Below, one piece after another: positions 483 through 62,270 of a stretch of 64,000 nt of DNA. Location of the stretch: positions 9,259-73,258 of the forward strand of contig VMFR01000001.1 of the NCBI GenBank assembly GCA_007376135.1, given 5' to 3'. The translations under genes were made by a program, and so were the position numbers. Position 1 is the first letter of the stretch. Every line of letters starts with the position of its first letter. The notes below the pieces were generated by a model. It worked only from the letters and a program-made list of their open reading frames with translations, made no database searches and was not told where the DNA came from. This DNA comes from Parcubacteria group bacterium Gr01-1014_31. GTDB lineage: Bacteria > Patescibacteriota > Patescibacteriia > Buchananbacterales > GWA2-38-13.

Positions 483-533
483 TACCGTGCCGCGCCCAGC
501 AGATTCATCCTTCATTCTTCAATCCCTACTCGT

Positions 534-2566: not shown

Positions 2567-2639
2567 CGTGAGTTCACAAGCGGCGGGCAGGTGCTATACT
2601 GAAGCAACCTTCCCGCCGCTTTGCGGTTTTCTCTTAGTT

Positions 2640-4049
2640 ATGCGCCGTATTCTCATCGTCAATCCGAATCTCTACTCATCGCGCGCCACCGTGATGCGCG
2701 GGCGGCACCGGCCGCCGCTGGACTTGGCCTACATTGCCGCTCTCCTGCGCAACGATTTTGAAGTGCGGCTCGTGGACGCGCGCGTCGACAATCTTGATGT
2801 GTGCCAGATGTACGCGGAGGTGGCGGCCTATTCTCCCGAGGTGCTCATTACGACGACCACGCCCGTGGACCGCTGGGAGTGCCCGCAGTCCTATTTGGAG
2901 TCATTCTTCAGCTGGCTTGGCGATGTTGCCAACCTGCCCACCAAGCCCGTGATCATCGTCACGGGCACGCACGGCACCACGCAGCCCGACTGGCTGCTGC
3001 GCCGTTGCCCGTCCATCGATTTCTTGGTGCGCGGCGAACCTGAACGGACGTGTGAGGCGTTGGTGCGCGCAATTGCGGCCGGCGGCCATCCGTCCGTCAT
3101 CGCCGGAGTGTCGTACCGCCAGGAGGAAAAGATCCTGCACAATCAGGCAGCACCGCGCATTCTGGACCTGGACGCCCTGCCCTTGCCGGCCTACGACCTG
3201 CTGCCGATGGGCAAGTACCGCTACACGTTCGGCGACATCCCGCAACCGTTCTCCATCGTGCTGGCCACCCGCGGGTGCCCGTACCGCTGCACCTTCTGCT
3301 GCCGGGTCATGATGGAGAACGCCTACGTTACGCGCAAACCCCAGCAGGTGTACGATGAATTGAAGTACCTGCGCGAGCGGTTCGGCGTGCGCGGGATTTT
3401 TTTCCAGGACTGGGAGTTCACCATCAACAAGTTTTTCGTCAATGCGCTGATGGACCTGCTGCTCGCCAAGCCGTTGGGCATCACCTGGGGTTGTAACGCG
3501 CGCGCCAATGATTTCCAACAACCCCAACTGTTCGAGAAGATGCAGCGGGCCGGCTTGGTGCGGGTGAACATCGGCTTTGAGTCCGGTTCTCCCGAGGTCC
3601 TGGAGGCGGTCAACAAGAAGATCACGGTCGACGACCTGGCGCGGGCCATAGAAGTGACCCGGCGGCTGAAGCTGCACTTGGGAATGTACGCGCTGCTCAA
3701 CGCGCCCGGGGAAACGGCAAAAACCATCCGCGAAACCATGGCGTTCCTCAAGCGCCAGGGGATCAGTTCGATGAATTTCAACCTGGTCGTGCCGTACTTC
3801 GGCACCGCGGTGCACGAGCAGCTGCGCGAGCAGCTCGGCCCCGAAGCGGCCGAGCACCTGACCTGGGATACCATCGAAGAGTACGCCGGCCGCACCCGCA
3901 CGCAGTTGCCGCCTTGGCTGGCGCGCCTCTACCAGCGTCACACGAAATACCGCCTCTCCAGCGGGCCGATCTACTGGCTGCGCCCTGCGGTCTGGGCCGA
4001 GGTCGGGAGAAAGGTCGTGGGCCGCATGCATCCGCATGAGGGAAAGTAG
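2640..4049 (+). CDS. B12-binding-domain radical SAM protein
   Basis: N-terminal Rossmann-like B12-binding region (RILIVNPN...LDLAYIAALLR); CxxxCxxC cluster motif GCPYRCTFC; start moved to internal ATG 2640. Confidence 0.8.
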   Translation: MRRILIVNPNLYSSRATVMRGRHRPPLDLAYIAALLRNDFEVRLVDARVDNLDVCQMYAEVAAYSPEVLITTTTPVDRWECPQSYLESFFSWLGDVANLPTKPVIIVTGTHGTTQPDWLLRRCPSIDFLVRGEPERTCEALVRAIAAGGHPSVIAGVSYRQEEKILHNQAAPRILDLDALPLPAYDLLPMGKYRYTFGDIPQPFSIVLATRGCPYRCTFCCRVMMENAYVTRKPQQVYDELKYLRERFGVRGIFFQDWEFTINKFFVNALMDLLLAKPLGITWGCNARANDFQQPQLFEKMQRAGLVRVNIGFESGSPEVLEAVNKKITVDDLARAIEVTRRLKLHLGMYALLNAPGETAKTIRETMAFLKRQGISSMNFNLVVPYFGTAVHEQLREQLGPEAAEHLTWDTIEEYAGRTRTQLPPWLARLYQRHTKYRLSSGPIYWLRPAVWAEVGRKVVGRMHPHEGK

Positions 4050-4058
4050 CGTAGCGTT

Positions 4059-4086
4059 CAGCCGCCCTTTGCCGGGCGGTTTTTGT
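4059..4086 (+). terminator. rho-independent terminator after radical SAM gene
   Basis: stem CCGCCC / GGGCGG with 6-nt loop followed by TTTTT. Confidence 0.6.
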
Positions 4087-4106
4087 TTGGGCGTTCCGTC
4101 GGTTTG

Positions 4107-4115
4107 TGGTATAAT
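4107..4115 (+). promoter_or_regulatory. extended -10 element TGgTATAAT upstream of receiver gene
   Basis: TGnTATAAT match ~37 nt upstream of ATG 4152; upstream TTGTTT hexamer is spaced 21 nt (non-canonical). Confidence 0.4.
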
Positions 4116-4151: not shown

Positions 4152-4562
4152 ATGGCAACCAAGAGCACGAAGAAGCCGACAACCACGGCGGCGGGCGGCA
4201 AGGCCGTTCTCATCATCGAGGATGATGAATTTTTGGCAAAAATGATGGCCCGGATGCTGGAAGAGGCCGGGCTGCGGTGTACGCTGGCGGGGAACGGCAA
4301 AGAAGGCTTGCGGAAAGCGCAGGCGGATGTCCCGCAGCTCATCATCCTGGACATCATCCTGCCTGATTTGGACGGGTTTGCGATTTTGAGCAAATTGAAA
4401 GCCGCCGCCGCTACCAAAGCGGTTCCGGTCATCATCATTTCCAACCTTGGCCAGGAGGAAGACGTGCAGCAGGGTCTGCGGTTGGGCGCCAAGGACTACA
4501 TCGTAAAGAGCGACCTCAGCCTGGATGCGGTGGTGGCTAAGGTGATGAAGCAACTGAAATAA
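4152..4562 (+). CDS. stand-alone response-regulator receiver domain (CheY-like), likely pilus-associated
   Basis: phospho-acceptor Asp in IILDIILPDLDG, DYIVKSD motif; no output domain; immediately upstream of pilB/pilC. Confidence 0.8.
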   Translation: MATKSTKKPTTTAAGGKAVLIIEDDEFLAKMMARMLEEAGLRCTLAGNGKEGLRKAQADVPQLIILDIILPDLDGFAILSKLKAAAATKAVPVIIISNLGQEEDVQQGLRLGAKDYIVKSDLSLDAVVAKVMKQLK

Positions 4563-4565
4563 CAT

Positions 4566-4654
4566 TTGACTGTTGACCTTTGACCATTGACCGCGTTGAT
4601 GTTGGTCAAATTTCGCCGCTTGTCAAATGTTGCCGGTCAATGGTTAATGGTCAG
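4566..4654. promoter_or_regulatory. array of TTGAC(C) heptads (four tandem 7-bp units) followed by inverted GGTCAA copies, upstream of pilB
   Basis: TTGACTG TTGACCT TTGACCA TTGACCG at 4566-4593, then GGTCAA/GTCAA at 4604, 4622, 4635, 4642(GGTTAA), 4649(GGTCAG). Confidence 0.45.
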
Positions 4655-4655
4655 T

Positions 4656-6350
4656 ATGCACGTATCGGATGAACAACTGAAAGAGGCGCTGGTTTCGCGG
4701 CAGCTGTTGCCCGCGAGCCAGGTGAACGCTGCGTTCGCGAAGGCGGAGGCGCAGCATCTGTCTTTGCGCGAGGTGCTGTTGAACGATGATCTGATCGCCG
4801 ACGAGCACGTGGGCCGACTGATCGCCGACCTGCTGGGGGTCCCGTTCATTAACCTCCGCAAAGTGCAAATACCGGAGGCGGTGCTGCGGTTGATTCCGGA
4901 AGTGGTGGCCAAGAGCCGCCAGGTGATCGCGGTCAAACGCGATCGCGAGGGGTTGACGGTCGCGATGGCGGATCCCGACGACATGGAGGCGGTGGCGCTG
5001 GTGCAGAAGGCGACCGGCGAGCTGGTCACGCCGGCCTTGGCCACCCCGCGCGACCTCGGCGGCGCGTTGTCGCGGTACCGGAAGGGCTTGCAAGAGGATT
5101 TTTCCGCGCTGCTGACGGCGGCCGCGTCGGAAGCGGAAGCTGCCACCAAAGAGCAGGCAGTGGAACAGGCGGAAGCGACGGTAGTGCGCATTGTCGAACA
5201 GCTGCTCGCGTACGCCTATGAGAATAAAGCCTCCGACCTGCATCTGGAGCCGCAGCGCGACGCTCTGGTGGTGCGTTTCCGCATCGATGGCGTCCTGCAC
5301 GAGGTGGTCGCTCTGCCGAAAGCCATCGAACCGCAGATCGTCTCCCGCATCAAGGTATTGTCCAAATTGCGCACCGACGAGCATGCGGCGGCCCAAGACG
5401 GTAAATTTCGGTTCAGCGTTCCGGAAGAGCAGGTGGATGTCCGCGTTTCCATCCTGCCGGTGACCGCCGGTGAAAAAGTGGTCTTGCGGCTGTTATCGTC
5501 CAAGCAGCGGGAATTTTCCCTCGAGGATCTTGGCTTTGGGGCGGGCGATCTGAAAAAAGTGAAACTGGCGTTCAACAAACCGTACGGCATGATCCTGTCC
5601 ACCGGCCCGACGGGTTGTGGCAAGACCACGACGCTCTACGCCATCCTGCAGATCCTCAACAGCCGCGAGATCAATATTTCCACGATCGAAGACCCGGTCG
5701 AGTATGAGATCGCGGGCGTGAATCAGATCCAGGTCAACGCCAAGACGAATCTGACGTTCGCGGCCGGCCTGCGCTCCATCCTGCGCCAGGACCCCGACGT
5801 CATCATGGTCGGGGAGATCCGCGACGAGGAGGCGGCCGGCATCGCGGTTAACGCCGCCATGACCGGCCATCTGGTGCTCTCGACGCTCCACACCAATGAT
5901 GCCGCGACTTCGCTGCCGCGGCTGTTGGACATGCAGGTGGAACCGTTCCTCATCTCCAGCACTGTGAATGTCATTGTGGCGCAGCGTCTGGTGCGGCGCA
6001 TCTGTAGCCAGTGTTTGGTGAGCTACCAGGCCAAGCGCAAGGAGCTTGGGGCGACGCTTTCGCCGGCGCTGGTCACCCGCCATTTCGGAAACCGCGCGTC
6101 GGTGCGGCTGTACAAGGGCAAGGGGTGCCAGGTGTGCGGCGGTACCGGGTACCACGGCCGGGTCGGCATTTTCGAAGTTCTGGAGGTGACGGAGGCGGTA
6201 CGGCGGCTGATCATGGAGCGCGCCAACGCGGATATCATCAAGGCGGAAGCGGTCAAGGAGGGGATGACGACGATGTTGGATGATGGCCTGGCGAAAGCGG
6301 TGCAGGGGGCGACGACCATTGAGGAAGTCCTGCGGGCGACCCGCGAGTGA
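4656..6350 (+). CDS. pilB: type IV pilus assembly ATPase PilB (GspE family)
   Basis: GspII_E N-domain, Walker A GPTGCGKTTT, His/Asp boxes, tetracysteine CSQC...CQVC; start chosen at ATG 4656 (track start 4587 lies in the repeat array). Confidence 0.9.
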   Translation: MHVSDEQLKEALVSRQLLPASQVNAAFAKAEAQHLSLREVLLNDDLIADEHVGRLIADLLGVPFINLRKVQIPEAVLRLIPEVVAKSRQVIAVKRDREGLTVAMADPDDMEAVALVQKATGELVTPALATPRDLGGALSRYRKGLQEDFSALLTAAASEAEAATKEQAVEQAEATVVRIVEQLLAYAYENKASDLHLEPQRDALVVRFRIDGVLHEVVALPKAIEPQIVSRIKVLSKLRTDEHAAAQDGKFRFSVPEEQVDVRVSILPVTAGEKVVLRLLSSKQREFSLEDLGFGAGDLKKVKLAFNKPYGMILSTGPTGCGKTTTLYAILQILNSREINISTIEDPVEYEIAGVNQIQVNAKTNLTFAAGLRSILRQDPDVIMVGEIRDEEAAGIAVNAAMTGHLVLSTLHTNDAATSLPRLLDMQVEPFLISSTVNVIVAQRLVRRICSQCLVSYQAKRKELGATLSPALVTRHFGNRASVRLYKGKGCQVCGGTGYHGRVGIFEVLEVTEAVRRLIMERANADIIKAEAVKEGMTTMLDDGLAKAVQGATTIEEVLRATRE

Positions 6351-6385
6351 TCTTCCGGAGAAAATCAAGGTTAAAAACACAAGGC

Positions 6386-7594
6386 ATGCAATTCGCGTAT
6401 TCGGCAGCCACGGCGGACGGGAAGATGACCCGCGGCGTTGTGGCCGCAGCCAACCAGCGGGCCGCGATCGCGCTGCTTGAACGGCAGCAGCTGGTTGTCG
6501 TGAAGCTGGAGCGCCGTCGTGACGGCAAGGCTCAGGCGCTCTACCGCGTGCCGCTGTTGCAGCGGATGCTTTTGGCGCAGCACCTGTCGACGCTCCTAAG
6601 AGCCGGCGTCAGCTTGCTGGAAGGCCTGCGAGTGGTGCAGGAAGAGGCCCGCTCACGGCGATTACGCAAGCTGTTGGAACGCGTGCGGGTCAAAGTATCG
6701 TCCGGCACCACCTTTGCCGCCGCCCTCGAATCCCAGGGCGGGGCCTTTGACTCCCTATTTACCAGTTTGGTGCGCGTCGGCGAGTCCTCCGGCACGCTGG
6801 AGGAGAATCTTTCCTACCTCGCGGATGAATTGGAGAAACGGATGGCGCTCCACACCAAAGTGCGCTCGGCGTTGACGTATCCGGCGGTGGTCGTCGGCGT
6901 GACGGGCGTGCTGGGCGCGGTCCTCGCGTTCTTCGTATTGCCCAAGATTGTTCCGCTGTTCACCTCGCTCAAGGTGAAACTCCCGCTCTCGACGGAGATC
7001 CTGTTGAGGGTCGCCGGGTTCTCCCGCGACCACGGTATGCTCTCCCTGGCGCTCATCGCCGGCGCCATCATTGCTTTCCGTTTGCTGACCTTGCGGGGAC
7101 CGTTGCGGCGGCAATGGCATTGGTTCTTGCTGCGTTTGCCGGTGGTCGGCCGCATTACGCGAAGTTTGAACCTGGCCAACGCCTGCCGGACCCTGGGGAC
7201 GCTGTTGAAGAGCGGCGTGCCGTTGCTGGAGGCGCTTGATATCACCGCCGGCACACTGGGGAATACGGCGTACCGCGAGGAATTTTCCGCTCTGCGGGAT
7301 GCGGCCGGCACCGGCACCAGCCTCGCTGCAAGCATGGCGCAGCCCTCGCGGCGGAAGCTGTTCCCGCCCTTGACGCTGTCGCTGGTCCGGGTGGGCGAAT
7401 CCAGCGGGAAACTGGACGAGAGTTTGCTCTACCTGAACCGTTTCTACGAACGCGAGGTGGATAATTTAATGAAAGATCTGACGGTCATCCTGGAGCCGAT
7501 GCTGTTGGTGTTCATCGGACTGGTGGTGGCGTTCGTCGCCGGGGCCATCATTACGCCTATCTACCAGATCTCCGGCAGTCTGCGAGTGAGATGA
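6386..7594 (+). CDS. pilC: type IV pilus inner-membrane platform protein PilC (GspF family)
   Basis: two GspF repeats, 3 TM regions; start at ATG 6386 preceded by AAGG. Confidence 0.85.
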   Translation: MQFAYSAATADGKMTRGVVAAANQRAAIALLERQQLVVVKLERRRDGKAQALYRVPLLQRMLLAQHLSTLLRAGVSLLEGLRVVQEEARSRRLRKLLERVRVKVSSGTTFAAALESQGGAFDSLFTSLVRVGESSGTLEENLSYLADELEKRMALHTKVRSALTYPAVVVGVTGVLGAVLAFFVLPKIVPLFTSLKVKLPLSTEILLRVAGFSRDHGMLSLALIAGAIIAFRLLTLRGPLRRQWHWFLLRLPVVGRITRSLNLANACRTLGTLLKSGVPLLEALDITAGTLGNTAYREEFSALRDAAGTGTSLAASMAQPSRRKLFPPLTLSLVRVGESSGKLDESLLYLNRFYEREVDNLMKDLTVILEPMLLVFIGLVVAFVAGAIITPIYQISGSLRVR

Positions 7595-7597
7595 TCT

Positions 7598-9646
7598 ATG
7601 AGGTTTCACTGGCCGCGGCGCAGCGTGGTGGGCATCGACCTTTCTGACCGGTCGATCGAGGCGTTGCAGCTGAAGCGGTCGCTGGGGAAGCCCGCACTGG
7701 CTGCCTACAGCCGGGTGCAGTTGCCGCCGGGTGTCGTTGAGGACGGGCGGATCCTACAGCCGGCCGCGCTGGTGGAACGGGTGCGCCAGCTGCTGCAGAA
7801 AGCGCGTCCGGAGCCCATTAAGGAGCATCTGTGTGTTATCGCCCTGCCGGAATCCCAGGTCTATTCGCATGTGTTTTCGTTGCCCGCGGCGTTCCAGGCC
7901 GAACAGGTGCGGCGGGCAATCCTCCTGGAGGCGGAGCACTTCATGCCCATCCCACTCAGGGAAAGTTATTTGGATTTTCGTCCTATCGGCGTCCGCGGCG
8001 AGTATCAGGAGGTGGCGTTTGCGGCGACCCGGCGCGGCCTGGTGCATACGTACCTTGAGGTTTTCAAGTCCGCCGGGCTCCAGCCTATCGCCTTCGAGCC
8101 GGAATCCGTCAGTCTGGGCCGGTCGCTGGTGCGCCGGACCTTAGGCGACGGGTCGGCGGCTACTCTTATTGCGGATGTGGGTATGCGTACGACCAATGTC
8201 CACCTCGTGCGCCAGGGTGCGGTCATCGGCAGTTTGACGATTCCGCGGGCCGGCGGTCACTTCACTGAGGCGGTCGCCGCGGCCATGAAGATTTCCCCGG
8301 AGGAGGCCGAGACCCGCAAACTGCAGGTCGGGTTCGACGAGCGGCGGGGCGATGCCGTCCTGGTGTCCGCGCTCTCGTCGGCAGCGGTGCCGATCATCGC
8401 CGAGGTCAAGCGGTTCGTGGCGTACGCGGTCGAACATCGCGGCGTAACCGTACGCCAGGTGGTGTTGGCCGGCGGGTCCGCCTTGCTGCCGGGGTTCCCG
8501 GAATTTTTGTCGGCCCAGTTGAGTTTACCCGTCAGCGTCGGGGAGCCGTTGGCGCGCCTTTGGCAGGGCCGCGTGAAGCTGCCCGAACGCCAGGGCGTGC
8601 TGTATGGCAATGTCATCGGGCTGGCGCTGCGCGGGCTGCACCGCGACCCGGTTGCGGCGGGACCAAATCTGCTGATTCAGGCGCAGGACCGCATCCGCAG
8701 CGAACAACTGCAGCATTTTTTGACCGTACCGAAATTCGATCGGCGGCTGTGGGGAATGGTCGCCGCACTGGTATGCTCCCTGCTGGTGCTGGGGGGGCTG
8801 TTGTGGTACCGATCGGCAACGCCGGCGCCAAACCCGCGCTACGTGGTGGAATTTTCTCCGTTGGACTGGGCCAAGAGTAAGGCGCCGCAGACGACGGAGC
8901 TGGCTATTTCCTTTGCGTCCGCGGAGGCTGTTCCCGCCAATGCGCTTCCCGCGCGATTCCTGGAAGGAGTATTCACCGCCACGGACGTTTTCGCGGCTAC
9001 GGCGTCCGCCACCGTTGCCACCACGGACACGCTGGTGCGATTGGTGAACACGACCGATCGGGACCAGCCACTGGTGTCCAATACCCGGCTGGAGGCAAAT
9101 GACGGAACCACCCTGCGTCTTACCTCCGGGGTCATCGTGCCCGCGGACGGTACTTTGACCATTGCCGTTCCCCTCCCGCCGGACGGTGGAGTGAGCGGGC
9201 GTTTGCGACTGCCGGGGTTGTCGGTTGATGCCCAGCGGTCCATCTACGCCGAAGTCATCCTCCCCGCCGCCGTCATCGGGGCAGGCGATGTCGCCGCGGC
9301 CCGCGAGCGGCTGTTTGCCTCAGCGCGGCAGTTGGCAACCGATGCCTTCGTTGTTCAACAGGAAGCTGAGGAGTACCTGCTGCCGATATTCCCCCCGCTT
9401 GAGGGGGAGGCGCTGACGACGTCGTTGCCAGTCGGAGCATTCGCCGTCGAATTTTCGGCCACGCTGCGCCAACCCTTCGGAGGCATCGTGGTGTTCAAGA
9501 ATGACCTGGTATCGGCGATCACCGCCGCGTTTGGCCCCCTGGAGCAGCCGCTCCAGTCCGTCAGTTTCACGCTTGGCAAGCTGGATTTGGCGGAGCGCCG
9601 GATTTCTGTTATAATAACCACAGCCAGCCCGCCTGTGGAAAAGTAA
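7598..9646 (+). CDS. PilM-like actin-fold ATPase fused to PilN-like TM segment and a ~280-aa C-terminal extracytoplasmic domain
   Basis: N-terminal VVGIDLSDRSIEAL... PilM/FtsA-like fold; single TM (LWGMVAALVCSLLVLGGLLWY) near residue 390. Confidence 0.7.
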   Translation: MRFHWPRRSVVGIDLSDRSIEALQLKRSLGKPALAAYSRVQLPPGVVEDGRILQPAALVERVRQLLQKARPEPIKEHLCVIALPESQVYSHVFSLPAAFQAEQVRRAILLEAEHFMPIPLRESYLDFRPIGVRGEYQEVAFAATRRGLVHTYLEVFKSAGLQPIAFEPESVSLGRSLVRRTLGDGSAATLIADVGMRTTNVHLVRQGAVIGSLTIPRAGGHFTEAVAAAMKISPEEAETRKLQVGFDERRGDAVLVSALSSAAVPIIAEVKRFVAYAVEHRGVTVRQVVLAGGSALLPGFPEFLSAQLSLPVSVGEPLARLWQGRVKLPERQGVLYGNVIGLALRGLHRDPVAAGPNLLIQAQDRIRSEQLQHFLTVPKFDRRLWGMVAALVCSLLVLGGLLWYRSATPAPNPRYVVEFSPLDWAKSKAPQTTELAISFASAEAVPANALPARFLEGVFTATDVFAATASATVATTDTLVRLVNTTDRDQPLVSNTRLEANDGTTLRLTSGVIVPADGTLTIAVPLPPDGGVSGRLRLPGLSVDAQRSIYAEVILPAAVIGAGDVAAARERLFASARQLATDAFVVQQEAEEYLLPIFPPLEGEALTTSLPVGAFAVEFSATLRQPFGGIVVFKNDLVSAITAAFGPLEQPLQSVSFTLGKLDLAERRISVIITTASPPVEK

Positions 9647-13331: not shown

Positions 13332-14470
13332 AGTCTATGCATCTTCGCGGGTGGTTGAACATCCTGATTAGTATCGCGGTCATCGTCGCGGTCGTGACGG
13401 TCGGCTACCGGCTGATCTATGCGTCCAATCCGCTCAAGCAAGCGGGAGCATTGTTCTCCAGCCTTTTTGACCGTTCGTCCATGCTCCATTCCAGCTTGCG
13501 GCGCGAAGCCGTGCCCGCCCCCGAGTTGGCCGGTATTCAGCAGTGGTTCAACACCGCCGGCAATACGCCCTTGCGCATCTCCGACCTGCGCGGAAAGGTC
13601 GTCATCGTTGATTTTTGGACCTATAGCTGCATCAACTGCATCCGGACCATGCCGTATATCACGGCCTGGGACAAAAAATACCGCGATCGCGGTTTGGTGA
13701 TTATTGGCGTGCATACTCCGGAATTCGAATTCGAAAAGGTCCCCGCGAACGTCGCGGGGAAGATCAAGGAGTACGGCATTGAATACCCGGTGGCGCTGGA
13801 TAGCCGCTACGATACCTGGAACGCCTACGGTAACCAATTCTGGCCGGCCAAGTACTTCATCGACCATGAGGGTAACATCGTCTGGCGCCATTTCGGGGAA
13901 GGCGCGTACGAGGAATCGGAAGCAAAGATCCAGGAGCTGTTGCGCAATGCCGGTTTGCTCGATGATGTCCCGCCGACGGCAGCCGTCAGCCCGAATGTCG
14001 ATTTTTCCCTGATCAAGACGCCGGAACTGTATTTCGGCTATCGCCGGCTGCTGTCGCCGTCCCAGCGGCGGCATTTCGCGCCTGACCAGCTTCGCCCGGG
14101 CGAGGTCAACCGGTACGCCGCGCCGCCAACGTTACAGGAGAACGAATTTACCCTGGTCGGTGATTGGCTGATGGAGGATGAGTACGCCGAGCTGAGATCG
14201 GCGCAGGGGGCGATCCTTATCCGTTACTTCGCCACCAAGGCGAATCTGGTGCTGGAGGCGACCCCTGCTGCCAGGGCGAGCGTGCTCGTGGATGGCGAGC
14301 CGCTCCGGGGCGCGGGTCGCGGGAGCGATGTGCGCACAGACGGAACCGTGGCCATCGGCGAACCAAGACTGTATAATCTGACCGTTGCCGGGGACGACCT
14401 GGGCTGGCATACTCTGGAGGTGCGGTTCGACCGGCCCGGCATCCGTGCGTTCTCGTTCACCTTCGGCTGA
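13328..14470 (+). CDS. membrane-anchored TlpA/ResA-like thiol-disulfide oxidoreductase (redoxin, DipZ C-terminal-like) with ~140-aa C-terminal extension
   Basis: ATGA overlap with ccdA stop; TM anchor; VVIVDFWTYSCINC...YFIDHEGNIV. Confidence 0.75.
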   Translation: MKSMHLRGWLNILISIAVIVAVVTVGYRLIYASNPLKQAGALFSSLFDRSSMLHSSLRREAVPAPELAGIQQWFNTAGNTPLRISDLRGKVVIVDFWTYSCINCIRTMPYITAWDKKYRDRGLVIIGVHTPEFEFEKVPANVAGKIKEYGIEYPVALDSRYDTWNAYGNQFWPAKYFIDHEGNIVWRHFGEGAYEESEAKIQELLRNAGLLDDVPPTAAVSPNVDFSLIKTPELYFGYRRLLSPSQRRHFAPDQLRPGEVNRYAAPPTLQENEFTLVGDWLMEDEYAELRSAQGAILIRYFATKANLVLEATPAARASVLVDGEPLRGAGRGSDVRTDGTVAIGEPRLYNLTVAGDDLGWHTLEVRFDRPGIRAFSFTFG

Positions 14471-14571
14471 ACTGGGTGGCGACCGTTGGCAGACCAACCC
14501 GTTGTGTTATATTATTCACCAGCAGCTTATGCTGCCGGGGAAAATCTCCCCGCGATAATTATGTGTGTGGT

Positions 14572-15390
14572 ATGCGAAAATATTTCGCGTTCATGGCGCT
14601 TGGCGCCGCATTGATCGCGGCCGCTTGCACTCGTCAAGTGCCGCCGCCCCAGGCCGGGGGTAACGACAATGACCAGGCCGCCGTCAGCCCGACGCCCGAT
14701 GTTAGGGCGGCAAAGACGGTCGTCCAGATCCTGAACTTGCGCAGCAAAGCGTTGGCCGGCCAACCGTTGGAGGTGACCTGGCAGGTCAAACCGGAGGATG
14801 GCGCGACCGGTACCATCAGCCATACCGCGTTCCACTACGATGTTATCTCCCATCCGGGCGTGTTGGGCCAGGACGTAACTCCCGCCGCCGCCGGCTACAA
14901 GGAGTTGACGCCGGATTTTGCCCAGGGCGAGTTCCAGGTACCGCGGTCGTTCTCGGCGAAATTGACGCCGCAAGCCGGGAAATTGTACGTTCGGGCGCAC
15001 ACGATCATCGAGGGAAAGCAGTACTGGACCGACGAGGCCGTGGTGGAGGTGGTATCCGACCCGGCAATGATGGGCGAGGGCGGAGACCAGGACGATGAAA
15101 CGGTGAGCGGCGAGGTGAAAACCCTGACCATGACCGCAGAGACTTGGGAATTCGAGCCGTCGACCATCCGGGTGAAGAAAGGCGACCGCGTCAAATTGGT
15201 GGTTACCAGCAAGGACGTTACGCATGGATTGATACTGCCGCAGTACAAGATCGACGAGAAGCTCGAGCCGGGCAAGACGGTGACCGTCGAATTCACCGCC
15301 GATACCGCGGGTGAATTCCCGTTCTGGTGCAATGTACCGTGCGGGGAAGGCCACCGCGAGATGCGCGGTACGCTGATTGTGGAAGAGTAA
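14572..15390 (+). CDS. lipoprotein with C-terminal cupredoxin domain carrying a complete CuA-type site (H-x34-C-x3-C-x3-H-x2-M)
   Basis: signal ...LIAAAC; VTHG...FWCNVPCGEGHREM matches the CuA ligand spacing of COX2/NosZ; no oxidase subunit I nearby. Confidence 0.65.
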   Translation: MRKYFAFMALGAALIAAACTRQVPPPQAGGNDNDQAAVSPTPDVRAAKTVVQILNLRSKALAGQPLEVTWQVKPEDGATGTISHTAFHYDVISHPGVLGQDVTPAAAGYKELTPDFAQGEFQVPRSFSAKLTPQAGKLYVRAHTIIEGKQYWTDEAVVEVVSDPAMMGEGGDQDDETVSGEVKTLTMTAETWEFEPSTIRVKKGDRVKLVVTSKDVTHGLILPQYKIDEKLEPGKTVTVEFTADTAGEFPFWCNVPCGEGHREMRGTLIVEE

Positions 15391-29379: not shown

Positions 29380-29790
29380 TTATTGGGCAATCAATTCACA
29401 ATCGATGGTGCATTGGCACCATTTGTTACCAAATTCCATGGTTTTCGAAGATGCGTTACACCACCAGGCACTACCAGGGTTGTGACCTTCACATAGGCTG
29501 CCCACAGGGCAATTGTTGGAAACCTTTCCCCGAATAGTTTGGAGATTTGATTCCACTAAATTGTTTTGCTCGATTAACTCTACTTTCTGTGTAATCAAAG
29601 CTTCCCCATCCTTTTTTGCTTGGTTGAGTGCAGTATTCGTTTCCATGTACCGCTTTGTCGCTAGTTTAGACTCTCTATGAAGTGTCCCCACCCATCGGGC
29701 GAGTTGTCTATTAGTGTTCCATAATGTTACTAGTTGAGCGGAAAGAATAGCCGATCCGATGATTAGCCCTACCAAGATGATTTTTTTCAT
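29380..29790 (-). CDS. low-GC island gene 1: N-terminal TM anchor, coiled-coil region, C-terminal 6-Cys module (C-x5-C-x10-C-x13-C-x-C-x3-C)
   Basis: ORF track; local GC ~42% versus ~65% genome; paralogue of next gene. Confidence 0.55.
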   Translation of the reverse strand: MKKIILVGLIIGSAILSAQLVTLWNTNRQLARWVGTLHRESKLATKRYMETNTALNQAKKDGEALITQKVELIEQNNLVESNLQTIRGKVSNNCPVGSLCEGHNPGSAWWCNASSKTMEFGNKWCQCTIDCELIAQ

Positions 29791-29816
29791 AACTTTGTTC
29801 TGATTTATTGCTACCT

Positions 29817-30260
29817 TTAGCGTTCGGATGGCCGGGAAGCCACCTCACATTCTTCGGTGCATGTGCAGAAATTTGGCGCAAGCCCACGATCTACATAGTT
29901 CCCATTCTGGTCACACCTGAAACCAGAACCTCGGGTTTTACCTCTACAGCTATTTTCTTTGAGACAAATTATGGGCGTGGGGCTAGTTAAATTTTCATAG
30001 AATTTTACCCCAGCTGAGTTGCCCTCTAGAGATTGGCGAAGCGAAGTTATTTCACTCGACAACAGTGCATTTGAGGTTTGTGTAGCCTTGAGGTTCTGTT
30101 CAATCACCTGAGTTTCTAGGCCTAATGTTTCACGGTAACGGAGCAATGAATCAACGGTTGAAAGGAATATGTTATTATTAAGTGCGAACACTAACGTAAA
30201 AGCTGCCAAGAAAACAATGAGTGTACCGAACATCCCGATCCAGGCGTCGATTATTTTCAT
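29817..30260 (-). CDS. low-GC island gene 2: paralogous TM anchor + coiled coil + 6-Cys module (C-x5-C-x10-C-x15-C-x-C-x3-C)
   Basis: start at ATG 30260 (MKIIDAWIGMFG...); same Cys framework as gene 1. Confidence 0.55.
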   Translation of the reverse strand: MKIIDAWIGMFGTLIVFLAAFTLVFALNNNIFLSTVDSLLRYRETLGLETQVIEQNLKATQTSNALLSSEITSLRQSLEGNSAGVKFYENLTSPTPIICLKENSCRGKTRGSGFRCDQNGNYVDRGLAPNFCTCTEECEVASRPSER

Positions 30261-30315
30261 AGAAATACTTGTGAGGAGTAACAATTCACCTTCATCCTAG
30301 CATATTTTTTCTGAC

Positions 30316-33162: not shown

Positions 33163-33181
33163 ATAATTTTAGGCGCGGGGG

Positions 33182-37664: not shown

Positions 37665-37739
37665 CTTGTAGGAAGTAGCTGGTAGCTGGTAGGGTTACGT
37701 AAGCTATCCTACAAGCTACCAGCTATAAGCTACTTCCTC
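37665..37739. repeat. ~70-bp compound imperfect palindrome with internal AGCTGGT direct repeat and central TTACGTAA
   Basis: AGGAAGTAGCT (37670-80) pairs with AGCTACTTCCT (37728-38); AGCTGGTAGCTGGTAGG pairs with CCTACAAGCTACCAGCT; 14-nt loop contains TTACGTAA. Confidence 0.6.
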
Positions 37740-37742
37740 GCT

Positions 37743-51699: not shown

Positions 51700-52094
51700 A
51701 TTTGTCAAGCAATATAAATAGTATTTTATTACTTAGGGGCAGCGTAATTGCCGCTACCGATAAATTATTATTTTGGAGGCGATGGGGTGAGCTAGAGTTA
51801 TATCAGGAGGGGATTTTATTAAAGTTAGCATCGCTTTGGTTTATGAGTTTCTTTTTCCATAAACATGACATAGTTTTTGAAATAAATAAAAAGGATATTA
51901 TTCAAGTCGGCCGAATTAGCAATATTTTCATTCTCTTTTGGCTTCAGGGTATATCTGCGTTTTATATTAAATATATGGATAAAGAGCATCGGGTTAAAAA
52001 ATTTACCGTGGTCTGTGGATGGTTATTCAGTGGCGTTAAAGCCGATGAGGAATGGATAAGTAATTTTAAAAAGATAGGAGTTAATGTTAAATAG
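51696..52094 (+). CDS. extremely AT-rich (~33% GC) 132-aa hydrophobic protein, start overlapping GNAT stop (ATGA)
   Basis: ORF track; sharp compositional break 51700-52100 versus ~65% GC flanks. Confidence 0.4.
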   Translation: MNLSSNINSILLLRGSVIAATDKLLFWRRWGELELYQEGILLKLASLWFMSFFFHKHDIVFEINKKDIIQVGRISNIFILFWLQGISAFYIKYMDKEHRVKKFTVVCGWLFSGVKADEEWISNFKKIGVNVK

Positions 52095-54520: not shown

Positions 54521-54532
54521 CTCCATGGTGCT

Positions 54533-55501
54533 ATGGCAGGACTGCCAAGGGTGATCGTCGTGGCGGGCCCGACCGGGTCGGGGAAGACCAGGCTGGCCGT
54601 TGCTTTGGCGCGCCGTTTTGGTGGGGAGATCATCTCCGCCGATTCCCGCCAGGTGTACCGCGGAATGGATATCGGCACCGGAAAGGATTTGCGGGAGTAC
54701 GGGGCAAGAATTCAAAGGGCAAGGGGCAAAAGGGAAAAGTTGGGAGCTGATTTCAAAAATTCATTCGTGCCGTACCACCTGATCGACGTGGTCGGCCCGC
54801 GGACCCATTTTACCGTGGCTGATTTTCAACGACGGGCGTATCGCGCCATCGGGGATATTGTGCGGCGCGGGAAATTGCCGATCATTTGCGGTGGGACCGG
54901 GTTGTATGTGGATGCAGTGGTGAAGGGGTACCGTTTCGGAGCAGCAAGAATCAAGAAACAAGAATCAAGGAAGTTGCGGCAGCGGGTCGAACGGTTATCA
55001 ACGCGGCAGCTCTTGGAACTTCTAAAAAAGATCGACCCGGTGACCTATCGGGTCATCGACCGGCGCAACCGGCGGCGGGTGCAACGGGGAGTGGAAATTT
55101 ATTACGCCACCGGCCGCCCCAAGTCGCTGGCGCTGGCGGCCCAGGCGCCGCAGTATGATTTTTTACAGCTGGGTATTCGCGTACCATCGGCGCAGCTGTA
55201 CCGGCGGTTGCATCGCCGTCTCGAACAGCGGCTGCGCGCGGGAATGATCGGCGAAGTACAGCGGCTTCATCGTTCGGGAGTCTCCTGGTCGAGGCTGGAA
55301 ACGTTCGGGTTGGAATACCGCTGGGTCAGCCGCTATCTGCGCGGGCAAGCCAGCCGTTTTGAACTTGAGCGCGGGCTTTTTTCCGATATCAAACAATTTT
55401 CACGGCGGCAGATGACGTGGTTTCGGCGGAATACGGAGCTGCGATGGGTGGCAAGCCTTCGCGGCGCCACGGCCTCCGTACGACGCTTCTTGCGTCAATA
55501 A
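54533..55501 (+). CDS. miaA: tRNA dimethylallyltransferase
   Basis: P-loop VIVVAGPTGSGKT, ISADSRQVYRGMDIGT; start ATG 54533. Confidence 0.9.
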   Translation: MAGLPRVIVVAGPTGSGKTRLAVALARRFGGEIISADSRQVYRGMDIGTGKDLREYGARIQRARGKREKLGADFKNSFVPYHLIDVVGPRTHFTVADFQRRAYRAIGDIVRRGKLPIICGGTGLYVDAVVKGYRFGAARIKKQESRKLRQRVERLSTRQLLELLKKIDPVTYRVIDRRNRRRVQRGVEIYYATGRPKSLALAAQAPQYDFLQLGIRVPSAQLYRRLHRRLEQRLRAGMIGEVQRLHRSGVSWSRLETFGLEYRWVSRYLRGQASRFELERGLFSDIKQFSRRQMTWFRRNTELRWVASLRGATASVRRFLRQ

Positions 55502-61827: not shown

Positions 61828-62259
61828 TTAGTGGCCGGTCGAGCCGAAACCTCCGCGTGATTTTGGCGCGACCGTGCTGACTTCCTCCCAACTTGCGCGG
61901 TCGATTTTGACGAACGTCCCTTGGGCGAACCGCACCCCGCGTTCCAGCGAGACATCAGTTTCTCCGTAATTGTAGACTGCCACGTGGATTTCGTCGTCGG
62001 GTCCGAAGTAGTCCTGGTCGATCAAACCTGGGGCATTGGGCCCCAGCAGGTTGAATTTTTTCGGCGTGCCAGAGCGCAGGCTAATGAATAAGGCGTACCC
62101 TTTGGGAACCTTGATAATGAAGTTGGTCGGCACGCGCCGGTAGCCGTTCGCCGGCACGACGGTGGTTTCTCGCGCGTAGAGGTCAAACGCGCACGCGCCG
62201 GACGTGTGGTAGTCCGGCAGCGGCAGCGTGGGGTCGAGGCGTTTGATCTTGACGCGCAT
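61828..62259 (-). CDS. dut: dUTP diphosphatase
   Basis: motifs GACAFDL, SRSGTP, GLIDQDY, RGGFGSTG. Confidence 0.85.
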   Translation of the reverse strand: MRVKIKRLDPTLPLPDYHTSGACAFDLYARETTVVPANGYRRVPTNFIIKVPKGYALFISLRSGTPKKFNLLGPNAPGLIDQDYFGPDDEIHVAVYNYGETDVSLERGVRFAQGTFVKIDRASWEEVSTVAPKSRGGFGSTGH

Positions 62260-62270
62260 GAAAAAAACCG

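Follow-up and report, generated by a model that had tools for sequence, protein, structure and literature searches.

The window, by which we mean the whole stretch of 64,000 nucleotides from Parcubacteria group bacterium Gr01-1014_31 that was analysed, contains a pilus operon in which the gene of a receiver-only response regulator is followed by pilB, coding for the type IV pilus assembly ATPase, and then by the genes of PilC and of a PilM-containing protein (Table 1). In the Pfam search, no output or DNA-binding domain was found in the regulator. The translation of pilB is 100% identical to the NCBI PilB record. The original prediction had placed a heptad array in the gap between the regulator gene and pilB; Pfam confirms both flanking genes, and the gap, from the TAA stop codon to ATG 4656, is 93 nt long, with the element beginning 4 nt past the stop codon of the regulator. 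No tRNA or tmRNA gene was detected in the window.

Table 1. Positions of the genes and features discussed in the text (numbering of the window)
Feature	Positions	Strand	Basis
Radical-SAM/B12 enzyme	2568-4049		Pfam
Intrinsic terminator with T-run	4060-4081		Terminator scan
Candidate promoter of the regulator-pilB unit (TTGGGC, 17-nt spacer, TGgTATAAT, extended -10)	4087-4115	+	Read by eye
Receiver-only response regulator, 136 aa, stop TAA 4560-4562	4152-4562	+	Pfam PF00072, E = 7e-24
Left arm, four tandem heptads	4566-4593	+	Sequence, Tandem Repeats Finder, pattern search
Whole predicted stem-loop	4567-4660	+	RNA minimum free energy, pairing probabilities
Apical part of the hairpin	4594-4633	+	Sequence, minimum-free-energy structure
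Right arm, inverted heptads CGGTCAA TGGTTAA TGGTCAG	4634-4654	+	Inverted-repeat search, period 7
pilB, type IV pilus assembly ATPase	4656-6350	+	Pfam T2SSE + MshEN, N-terminal alignment
PilC	6347-7594		Pfam
PilM-containing protein	7598-9646		Pfam
Second hairpin, GTAGCTG/CTACCAG-type heptads	37665-37742	+	Tandem Repeats Finder, inverted repeats, folding

Alignment of the N-termini showed that all PilB homologues begin with M[H/R/Q][L/V]x[D/P][E/Q]QLK. In the window, this start falls on ATG 4656; no conservation of the protein upstream of this codon was found across the homologues. The N-terminal extension to TTG 4587, which would run through the array and had already been doubted, is therefore an artefact. 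The start given by NCBI, ATG 4647, adds three non-conserved residues; owing to this difference, a look-up of the exact protein beginning at ATG 4656 gave no public record. The alignment thus agrees with the earlier suggestion that ATG 4656 is probably the real start and supports it as the start of pilB, and we correct the annotation to this position.

The sequence of the gap reads exactly as originally described, with four tandem heptads followed by inverted GGTCAA/GTCAA copies. The heptads are TTGACTG (4566-4572), TTGACCT (4573-4579), TTGACCA (4580-4586) and TTGACCG (4587-4593), i.e. head-to-tail 7-nt units extending beyond the length expected by chance, and the variation among them is confined to unit positions 6-7. 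Exact inverted copies are present as GGTCAA at 4604-4609 and 4635-4640 and as GTCAA at 4622-4626, and degenerate ones as GGTTAA at 4642-4647 and GGTCAG at 4649-4654. The apical part contains scattered extra copies (TTGATG at 4596, TGGTCAA at 4603 and TTGTCAA at 4620), which pair with one another, and a small terminal stem. Tandem Repeats Finder detected a period of 7 on both arms, with 4.0 copies in the left arm and the unit GGTCAAT in the right arm. Since the right arm CGGTCAATGGTTAATGGTCA (4634-4653) is 90% the reverse complement of TGACCTTTGACCATTGACCG (4574-4593), the apparent symmetry of the copies is that of a single long hairpin.

The concern that the same heptads might occur at random frequency elsewhere was not borne out. 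A search of the 64-kb window for the three-unit pattern TTGACNNTTGACNNTTGAC with at most two mismatches yielded four matches, compared to 0.09 expected, all of them at the array locus, and no other cluster of the TTGACC motif was found within the window. The hexamer TTGACC itself occurs 64 times, about twice the expected 30. Outside the array locus, its copies are isolated, and 46 of the 54 coding occurrences fall into two codon phases. Because the copies are single and mostly restricted to these two phases, the twofold excess is explained by coding bias, and we ruled it out as evidence for TTGACC being a dispersed motif.

The predicted stem-loop at 4567-4660 has a minimum free energy of -37.6 kcal/mol (z = -3.8), and none of 200 shuffled sequences was equally stable; when the spacer gap was folded alone, z was -5.5. 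The main stem, which starts a few bases past the regulator stop, pairs 4571-4578 with 4649-4656. At its foot, T4571 is predicted to pair with A4656, which opens the pilB start codon, and the 20 nt preceding ATG 4656 are about 90% paired in the predicted ensemble. The hairpin is predicted to be 10 kcal/mol more stable in the sense strand than in the antisense strand, owing to seven G-U pairs. This excess of sense-strand stability was observed only in the window hairpin, and three of the four other hairpins exhibited no strand asymmetry; given this symmetry elsewhere, RNA-level selection is no more than a possibility. When a terminating ribosome was modelled, it opened the stem at its base only, so that a simple coupling of the regulator and pilB by ribosome unwinding is at most weakly suggested.

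We considered whether the stem-loop belongs to a known type of RNA element. An intrinsic (Rho-independent) terminator was rejected: the stem is followed by ATGCACG, with no T-run, and the terminator scan lists none at this position, whereas the clear terminators of this genome in the window do carry T-runs. The other strongly folding gaps (at 4060, 10255, 20640, 42280 and 58505) are ordinary terminators with T-runs and not heptad hairpins. Comparison with Rfam yielded no match in the window at the gathering threshold, and the sole match at a permissive threshold was to a plant miRNA-precursor model (22 bits, far from the cut-off of 80), a match that is due to hairpin shape in general.

The promoter scan found no promoter-like site on the + strand within the regulator-pilB gap, and inspection by eye revealed no acceptable -10 element 16-18 nt after any of the TTGAC units checked. 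No separate promoter can thus be recognised for pilB, which is probably co-transcribed with the regulator gene. The candidate promoter of this unit is located just downstream of the terminator that precedes the regulator gene; its -35 element matches the consensus at only three of six positions and the site falls below the scan threshold, so that we infer it from the sequence by eye.

To place the element in an evolutionary context, we compared the orthologous junctions of relatives found by a PilB protein search and by contig look-ups (a scan of genome contigs with PilB gave none above 52% identity). The order of the regulator gene and pilB is kept in every relative examined. The PilB clade comprises five genomes, namely the window and four others with 71-77% PilB identity, and a hairpin is present at the junction in four of the five, in spacers of 74-259 nt. 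The exception is L081, with a junction of 21 nt and no hairpin. In L083, the junction of about 74 nt can be aligned to that of the window and forms a hairpin of -11.4 kcal/mol. Both spacers start with TAACATTTGA, L083 having one heptad fewer (three vs four), and the right arm reads GTCAATTGTTAATTGTC in L083 and GTCAATGGTTAATGGTC in the window, with an identical G-to-T change in both units. The 216-nt junction of L082 forms one giant hairpin (-98.6 kcal/mol) with the left arm GGTCATGGTC... and the right arm ATTGACC ATGACCT AAGACCT. The 259-nt junction of L084 forms a nested hairpin (-77.4 kcal/mol), the outer arms of which (AAATTCC AAGCTCC AAGCACC vs GGAATTT GGGATTT GAGATTT GGAATTT) are unrelated in sequence to the others and share the same 7-nt build. 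Thus, both the number and the sequence of the units differ among related genomes.

The outgroups, with 57-61% PilB identity, have regulator-pilB gaps of 0, 0, 4 and 39 nt. In L205, L207 and L210, where the genes belong to an HK-RR-pilB operon, the stop and start codons overlap or are 4 nt apart; the gap of 39 nt is that of L209. In a neighbor-joining tree calculated without support values, the five close genomes form one clade, with the hairpin-less L081 nested inside it. Given this topology and the short outgroup gaps, the tight junction is likely to be ancestral. On that reading, the hairpin would have arisen by an expansion specific to this lineage, and would since have been remodelled, replaced and, probably on one occasion, lost. 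The feature that recurs at the junction is a paired, 7-nt-periodic spacer, and the TTGACC word is not conserved: it is absent from L081, replaced by unrelated units in L084, and the outgroup gaps measure 0-39 nt. A TGACC/GGTCA core is common to three of the five clade members (the window, L082 and L083), behind which there is possibly some sequence constraint, or plain common descent.

A second hairpin in the window is built in the same way. Its units (GTAGCTG GTAGCTG GTAGG / CCTACAA GCTACCA GCTATAA GCTAC) are unrelated to TTGACC, and it exactly fills the 78-nt gap from a gene for a UvrD/PD-(D/E)XK helicase-nuclease to a dciA-like gene of the same strand. The predicted energy is -44.9 kcal/mol (z = -5.1); for the gap, z is -10.4 and the lag-7 identity 0.49. 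In a relative with a 93% identical helicase, the hairpin is kept with seven substitutions, which are located in the loop and the right arm. It is absent from a relative with a 73% identical helicase, where the gap is 1 nt; the pilB hairpin is missing from this genome, too.

We also searched for 7-nt periodicity irrespective of the unit sequence, counting stretches in which 15 or more of 21 positions matched at a given lag (thresholds of 15-17 of 21 were tried). Eight stretches were found in the window at lag 7, compared to none at lags 4, 5, 8 and 10, and four of the eight are located in the intergenic 11% of the window; at the stricter threshold of 18 of 21, no lag-7 stretch was found in the window. 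In eight related loci, the lag-7 total was 14, compared to at most 5 for the other lags, and further heptad arrays are present there in the pilB-pilC, pilC-pilM and post-pilB gaps. An inverted repeat at 62166-62263 was dropped from the analysis, as it reads as coding and has no heptad periodicity, even though the heuristic gene map leaves 61956-62270 uncalled.

Tandem heptanucleotide (STRR) repeats occur in cyanobacteria. For Calothrix PCC 7601, three repeats of this kind are mentioned (PMC4692102). According to Mrazek 2007, as cited in PMC4679880 and PMC4692102, heptanucleotides are the commonest long simple-sequence repeats in most of the prokaryotic genomes examined, and polymerase slippage has been proposed as their cause. 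The closest counterparts of the present element are the GGGAATC-type arrays of Xanthomonas (Rehm et al. 2015, PMC4692102), which mostly contain four units, are about 90% intergenic, lie mainly between ORFs of the same strand at an average of 28 nt from the upstream ORF, and vary among species. Each Xanthomonas genome has 70-75 convergent GGGAATC pairs with the potential to form a stem-loop (PMC4692102). The element upstream of pilB resembles these pairs in its 7-nt unit, in arrays of about four units with conserved and variable unit positions, in its two opposed arms, which lie on opposite strands, close together and able to form a stem-loop, between two genes of one strand (here the + strand) and near the end of the upstream ORF, and in length and sequence differences among related genomes. 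In contrast to the Xanthomonas unit, TTGACC-N is not G-rich and has no G-tracts, and hence no G-quadruplex potential; moreover, the host belongs to the Parcubacteria (Patescibacteria/CPR), and the hairpin spans the whole stop-to-start gap of an operon junction. Its architecture is that of the Xanthomonas pairs, but it does not belong to their sequence family. All the structural features of the convergent-pair class are present in the element, which, judged by its sequence, is a hairpin-forming intergenic heptanucleotide repeat, a known class, here in a pilus operon of the Patescibacteria.

Two further systems are informative about what such repeats may do. Upstream of hmw1A in H. influenzae, there is a transcribed (ATCTTTC)n array that provides one side of a long hairpin in the 5'-UTR; cleavage of this hairpin by RNase III determines adhesin expression and the dynamics of the repeat (Rapun-Araiz et al. 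2025, PMC12721329). As in hmw1A, the heptamers described here are located upstream of the gene of a surface structure, and they are predicted to form one arm of a long and stable RNA hairpin. The right arm of the hmw1A hairpin is a G-rich region, whereas here it is an inverted heptad array. The hmw1A array has at least 11 units, is perfect and phase-variable, and is located in a 5'-UTR, whereas here four imperfect units are located in an intercistronic spacer. Transcription and RNase III cleavage of hmw1A were demonstrated experimentally, whereas the pilB element is known from its sequence. In Beggiatoaceae, Cyanobacteria and Bacteroidetes, TAACTGA direct repeats are found just upstream of start codons (MacGregor 2015, PMC4679880); these start codons, e.g. 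in Beggiatoaceae, are frequently without a canonical ribosome-binding site, and a post-transcriptional role was proposed (PMC4679880). The TAACTGA arrays (2-6 units) are similarly short, intergenic and directly ahead of start codons. However, a single TAACTGA unit recurs at some 170 sites in those genomes and is hardly ever found in inverted pairs, whereas here each site has its own unit, arranged in inverted pairs.

Taking these observations together, we consider the TTGACC array to be the 5' arm of an imperfect heptad inverted repeat, about 90 nt long, which makes up a fast-evolving spacer and would form an intercistronic RNA stem-loop in the regulator-pilB co-transcript, and we assign this explanation a probability of roughly 0.65. 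Within it, we infer the origin, the co-transcription, the folding of the mRNA and the effect on PilB output. Replication slippage on 7-nt units, together with inverted duplication or template switching, would have expanded a junction of 0-39 nt, which then would have evolved fast by gain and loss of units, concerted unit changes, full replacement of the sequence in one lineage and loss in another. Transcription of pilB would start with that of the regulator gene, from a promoter near 4087-4115, and the role as an intercistronic stem-loop of the co-transcript is the most likely one in our model. In the mRNA, the spacer would fold into a long stem-loop, the feet of which would bring the regulator stop and the pilB start together, and the stem would bury the 20 nt preceding the pilB start. 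The probable effect would be to set the output of PilB relative to that of the regulator. One possible route is that independent loading of ribosomes is limited, so that pilB becomes dependent on re-initiation; another is that the double-stranded stem could serve as a target of an RNase III-type enzyme, as in H. influenzae hmw1A. The conserved property would be the structure and not TTGACC, and no sequence-specific DNA-binding protein would be needed. It may also be that the heptad hairpin is without any function.

The operator, internal-promoter and selfish or neutral readings are each less likely than the heptad-hairpin explanation. The one that survives best takes the element as a selfish or neutral palindrome, REP/MITE-like or a mutational by-product, which is tolerated because the hairpin keeps the genes close and which has no role in expression. 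The element is lineage-specific and was lost in L081 and L212 without visible consequence, L082 and L084 resemble nested hairpins, the turnover of the sequence is complete, and three of the four other hairpins have no strand asymmetry, all of which fits this view. However, neither hairpin sequence has a second copy in the 64-kb window, inspection by eye showed neither terminal inverted repeats nor a target duplication, and a comparison with the plasmid collection gave no match. Moreover, strong pairing persists in four of five lineages over about 25% PilB divergence, and the sense-strand G-U pairs are present in the window hairpin, both of which hint at maintenance. We consider this reading rather improbable. 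A neutral by-product overlaps with the part of our preferred explanation that concerns origin and differs from it on function only.

The original prediction read the copies as an operator or iteron array, i.e. as TTGACC/GGTCAA units recognized by a DNA-binding regulator that controls transcription of pilB. Arrays of this kind exist: in plasmid pSM19035, the omega repressor binds 7-bp heptads that occur both as direct and as inverted copies. In V. cholerae, a regulator does act at the TTTTGAT heptads of the ctxAB promoter (bioRxiv 10.1101/2021.05.14.444153). These arrays also consist of contiguous 7-bp units upstream of a gene, and the copies described here are dense and symmetric, with left-arm variation concentrated at positions 6-7 and a TGACC core common to the window, L082 and L083. 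Nevertheless, the ctxAB and omega arrays show sequence conservation, overlap with a promoter and a known binding protein, and we found none of the three at the pilB junction. The gap is without a promoter-like site on the + strand, the adjoining regulator is receiver-only, with no DNA-binding domain, and TTGACC is not conserved at the junction, as the element is absent in L081 and the heptads of L084 are unrelated. The outgroup gaps of 0-39 nt are mostly too short for a separate operator or promoter, and the motif clusters nowhere else in the 64-kb window. Finally, because the second hairpin, at an unrelated junction, has different units, the operator model would need a separate binding protein for each element. 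The operator reading is thus not supported, and we regard it as very unlikely. More generally, dense short repeats ahead of a gene should not be read as regulator sites without comparative evidence.

The weakest alternative, an internal pilB promoter with the TTGACC units as stacked -35 hexamers (consensus TTGACA), is highly improbable: TTGACC does match five of the six consensus positions and the genome does use sigma-70-like promoters (e.g. TTGACA-17-TATTCT near 33180 and TGgTATAAT at 4107-4115), but the hexamers 17 nt after the units (ATTTCG, TGGTCA and CTTGTC) lack the key A2 and T6, the scan found no -10 element on the + strand of the gap, the best pairing (TTGTCA at 4620, 17 nt, GTTAAT) has a -10 that matches four of six positions and lacks A2, and the relatives with gaps of 0-4 nt indicate that pilB is normally co-transcribed.

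The present case shows that heptanucleotide hairpins, known in Xanthomonas, cyanobacteria and Haemophilus, are found in the small genomes of Patescibacteria (CPR) as well. There, they are located within operon junctions that are tight otherwise, and the sequence turns over fast while the pairing stays. One could go further and propose that heptad-built hairpins are a selected structural device at operon junctions of the Patescibacteria, replacing the direct overlap of stop and start codons, an extension that we put forward only tentatively and consider unlikely. If it were true, the cistrons would stay coupled, or the downstream cistron would need RNase III-type processing, the dosage of the pilus ATPase would be tuned against that of its regulator, and only the pairing would be selected, leaving the 7-nt unit sequence free to change. 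Alternatively, a mutational mechanism typical of the lineage could repeatedly generate palindromes with a 7-nt period that fit precisely into the space from a stop codon to the next start codon. Selected pairing would amount to a simple post-transcriptional control of pilus genes in regulator-poor organisms, and pairing that is not selected would make the element a clear case of spacer DNA being shaped by mutational processes.

Arrays or hairpins of yet other heptads were found in L002, L023, L046, L066 and L080, and the labels of the loci carrying such other units are Moraniibacteriota, Patescibacteria, deltaproteobacteria, Verrucomicrobiota and Pirellulales. When metagenome contigs were scanned for TTGACCNTTGACCNTTGACC, we detected at least 120 stretches, in DNA of 35-71% G+C, with TTGACC-N arrays of 3-9 units; 80 of these at least 120 stretches were taken as loci. 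Many of the metagenome TTGACC matches have the flank GTGACCTTGACCTTTGACCTTTGACCTTGAA in common and resemble a single family of dispersed repeats, which may come from eukaryotic host DNA and was not counted as bacterial. Several metagenome arrays with an inverted degenerate arm fold into long structures (L155, -50.4 kcal/mol; L127, -52.0; L137, -35.8; L112, -25.5), and the right arm of L155, AATGGTCAATGTTCAATGGTAAATGGTCAATGG, is much like that of the window. The metagenome arrays that we checked are located mostly between ORFs of the same strand.

A second hairpin of the same build as that upstream of pilB, made of GTAGCTG-unit heptads, was found in the window, where it exactly fills the gap between the gene for a UvrD/PD-(D/E)XK helicase-nuclease and a dciA-like gene. 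The hairpin is kept with 7 substitutions in one relative's locus (L211), which encodes a helicase protein 93% identical to that of the window; in the locus of another relative (L212, 6066-6068), with a 73% identical helicase protein, the helicase and dciA-like genes lie 1 nt apart.

Further period-7 arrays are present in the pilus operons of relatives, in other gaps (after pilB, between pilC and pilM, and between pilB and pilC). In L209 the array is made up of (AAAAACC)6 and, after it, an array of inverted GTTTTAA/GTTTTGG units, and it is located at the start of a gene called at 14348-14926, not in a gap.

Period-7 arrays and heptad hairpin in the window and in loci of relatives
Feature	Locus	Position	Location	Energy (kcal/mol)
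GTAGCTG-unit heptad hairpin	window	37665-37742	helicase-nuclease/dciA-like gap	-44.9
GTAGCTG-unit heptad hairpin	L211	7111-7188		
CAAAGGG CAAGGGG CAAAAGG	window	54711-54741	within miaA-like ORF	
CAAGAAT CAAGAAA CAAGAAT CAAGGAA	window	54937-54974	within miaA-like ORF	
TTCATCC TTCATTC TTCAATC	window	504-531	51-nt gap between ORFs 27-482 and 534-812	
Period-7 array	L084 (pilus locus, close relative)	3887-3914		
Period-7 array	L083 (pilus locus, close relative)	6986-7013		
Period-7 array	L210 (pilus locus, more distant relative)	5071-5105		
Period-7 array	L210	9552-9585		
Period-7 array	L209 (pilus locus, more distant relative)	14346-14436		

In the public annotation, PilB has 567 aa and starts from ATG 4647 (MVSMHVSDEQ…). 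The homologues point instead to ATG 4656 (MHVSDEQLK…) as the true start, in agreement with the original prediction. A protein of L083 (P0004) similarly carries a non-conserved 12-residue extension, which runs into the repeat array of that locus.

The miaA-like ORF (about 54530-55501) is intact and contains two period-7 stretches, which code for Lys/Arg/Gln-rich segments (…ARIQRARGKREKLG… and …ARIKKQESRKLRQ…) and look like heptad-type repeats taken up in frame by the coding sequence. The small ORFs on either side of the 51-nt gap are tandem paralogues whose products end in an identical peptide (…APLPSSLQNLPNMVGGC*), a conserved Cys-terminal tail.

Among the listed metagenome contigs matched in the scan for TTGACC-N arrays (L085-L164), dozens have in common a near-identical flank, …GTGACCTTGACCTTTGACCTTTGACCTTGAA/CTCAAAA… (for example L087, L098, L106, L149 and L164). 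This looks like a single dispersed repeat family rather than bacterial spacer repeats, and possibly derives from eukaryotic host DNA in host-associated metagenomes.

The PilM-domain protein of the window (7598-9646) has 682 aa, presumably some two times as many as a typical PilM, and its Pfam match covers residues 12-346. Among the relatives examined, four have the same long form (673-703 aa), and the protein of L209 is shorter (517 aa). From its length, the long form may be a PilM fused to another component of pilus alignment.

Two stretches of low G+C content were also observed. The island at 29380-30284 on the minus strand (about 45-50%, against 61% window-wide) codes for two small paralogous proteins of 136 and 155 aa, each combining a hydrophobic N-terminal helix with a coiled-coil-like central part and a C-terminus rich in Cys; the island may be of foreign origin or may be a pair of cell-surface genes. 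The other stretch (51700-52090), with a very low G+C content of 33%, lies between two plus-strand genes and includes one short ORF (MSFFFHKHDIVFEINKKD…); it has the appearance of a small insert gained by horizontal transfer.
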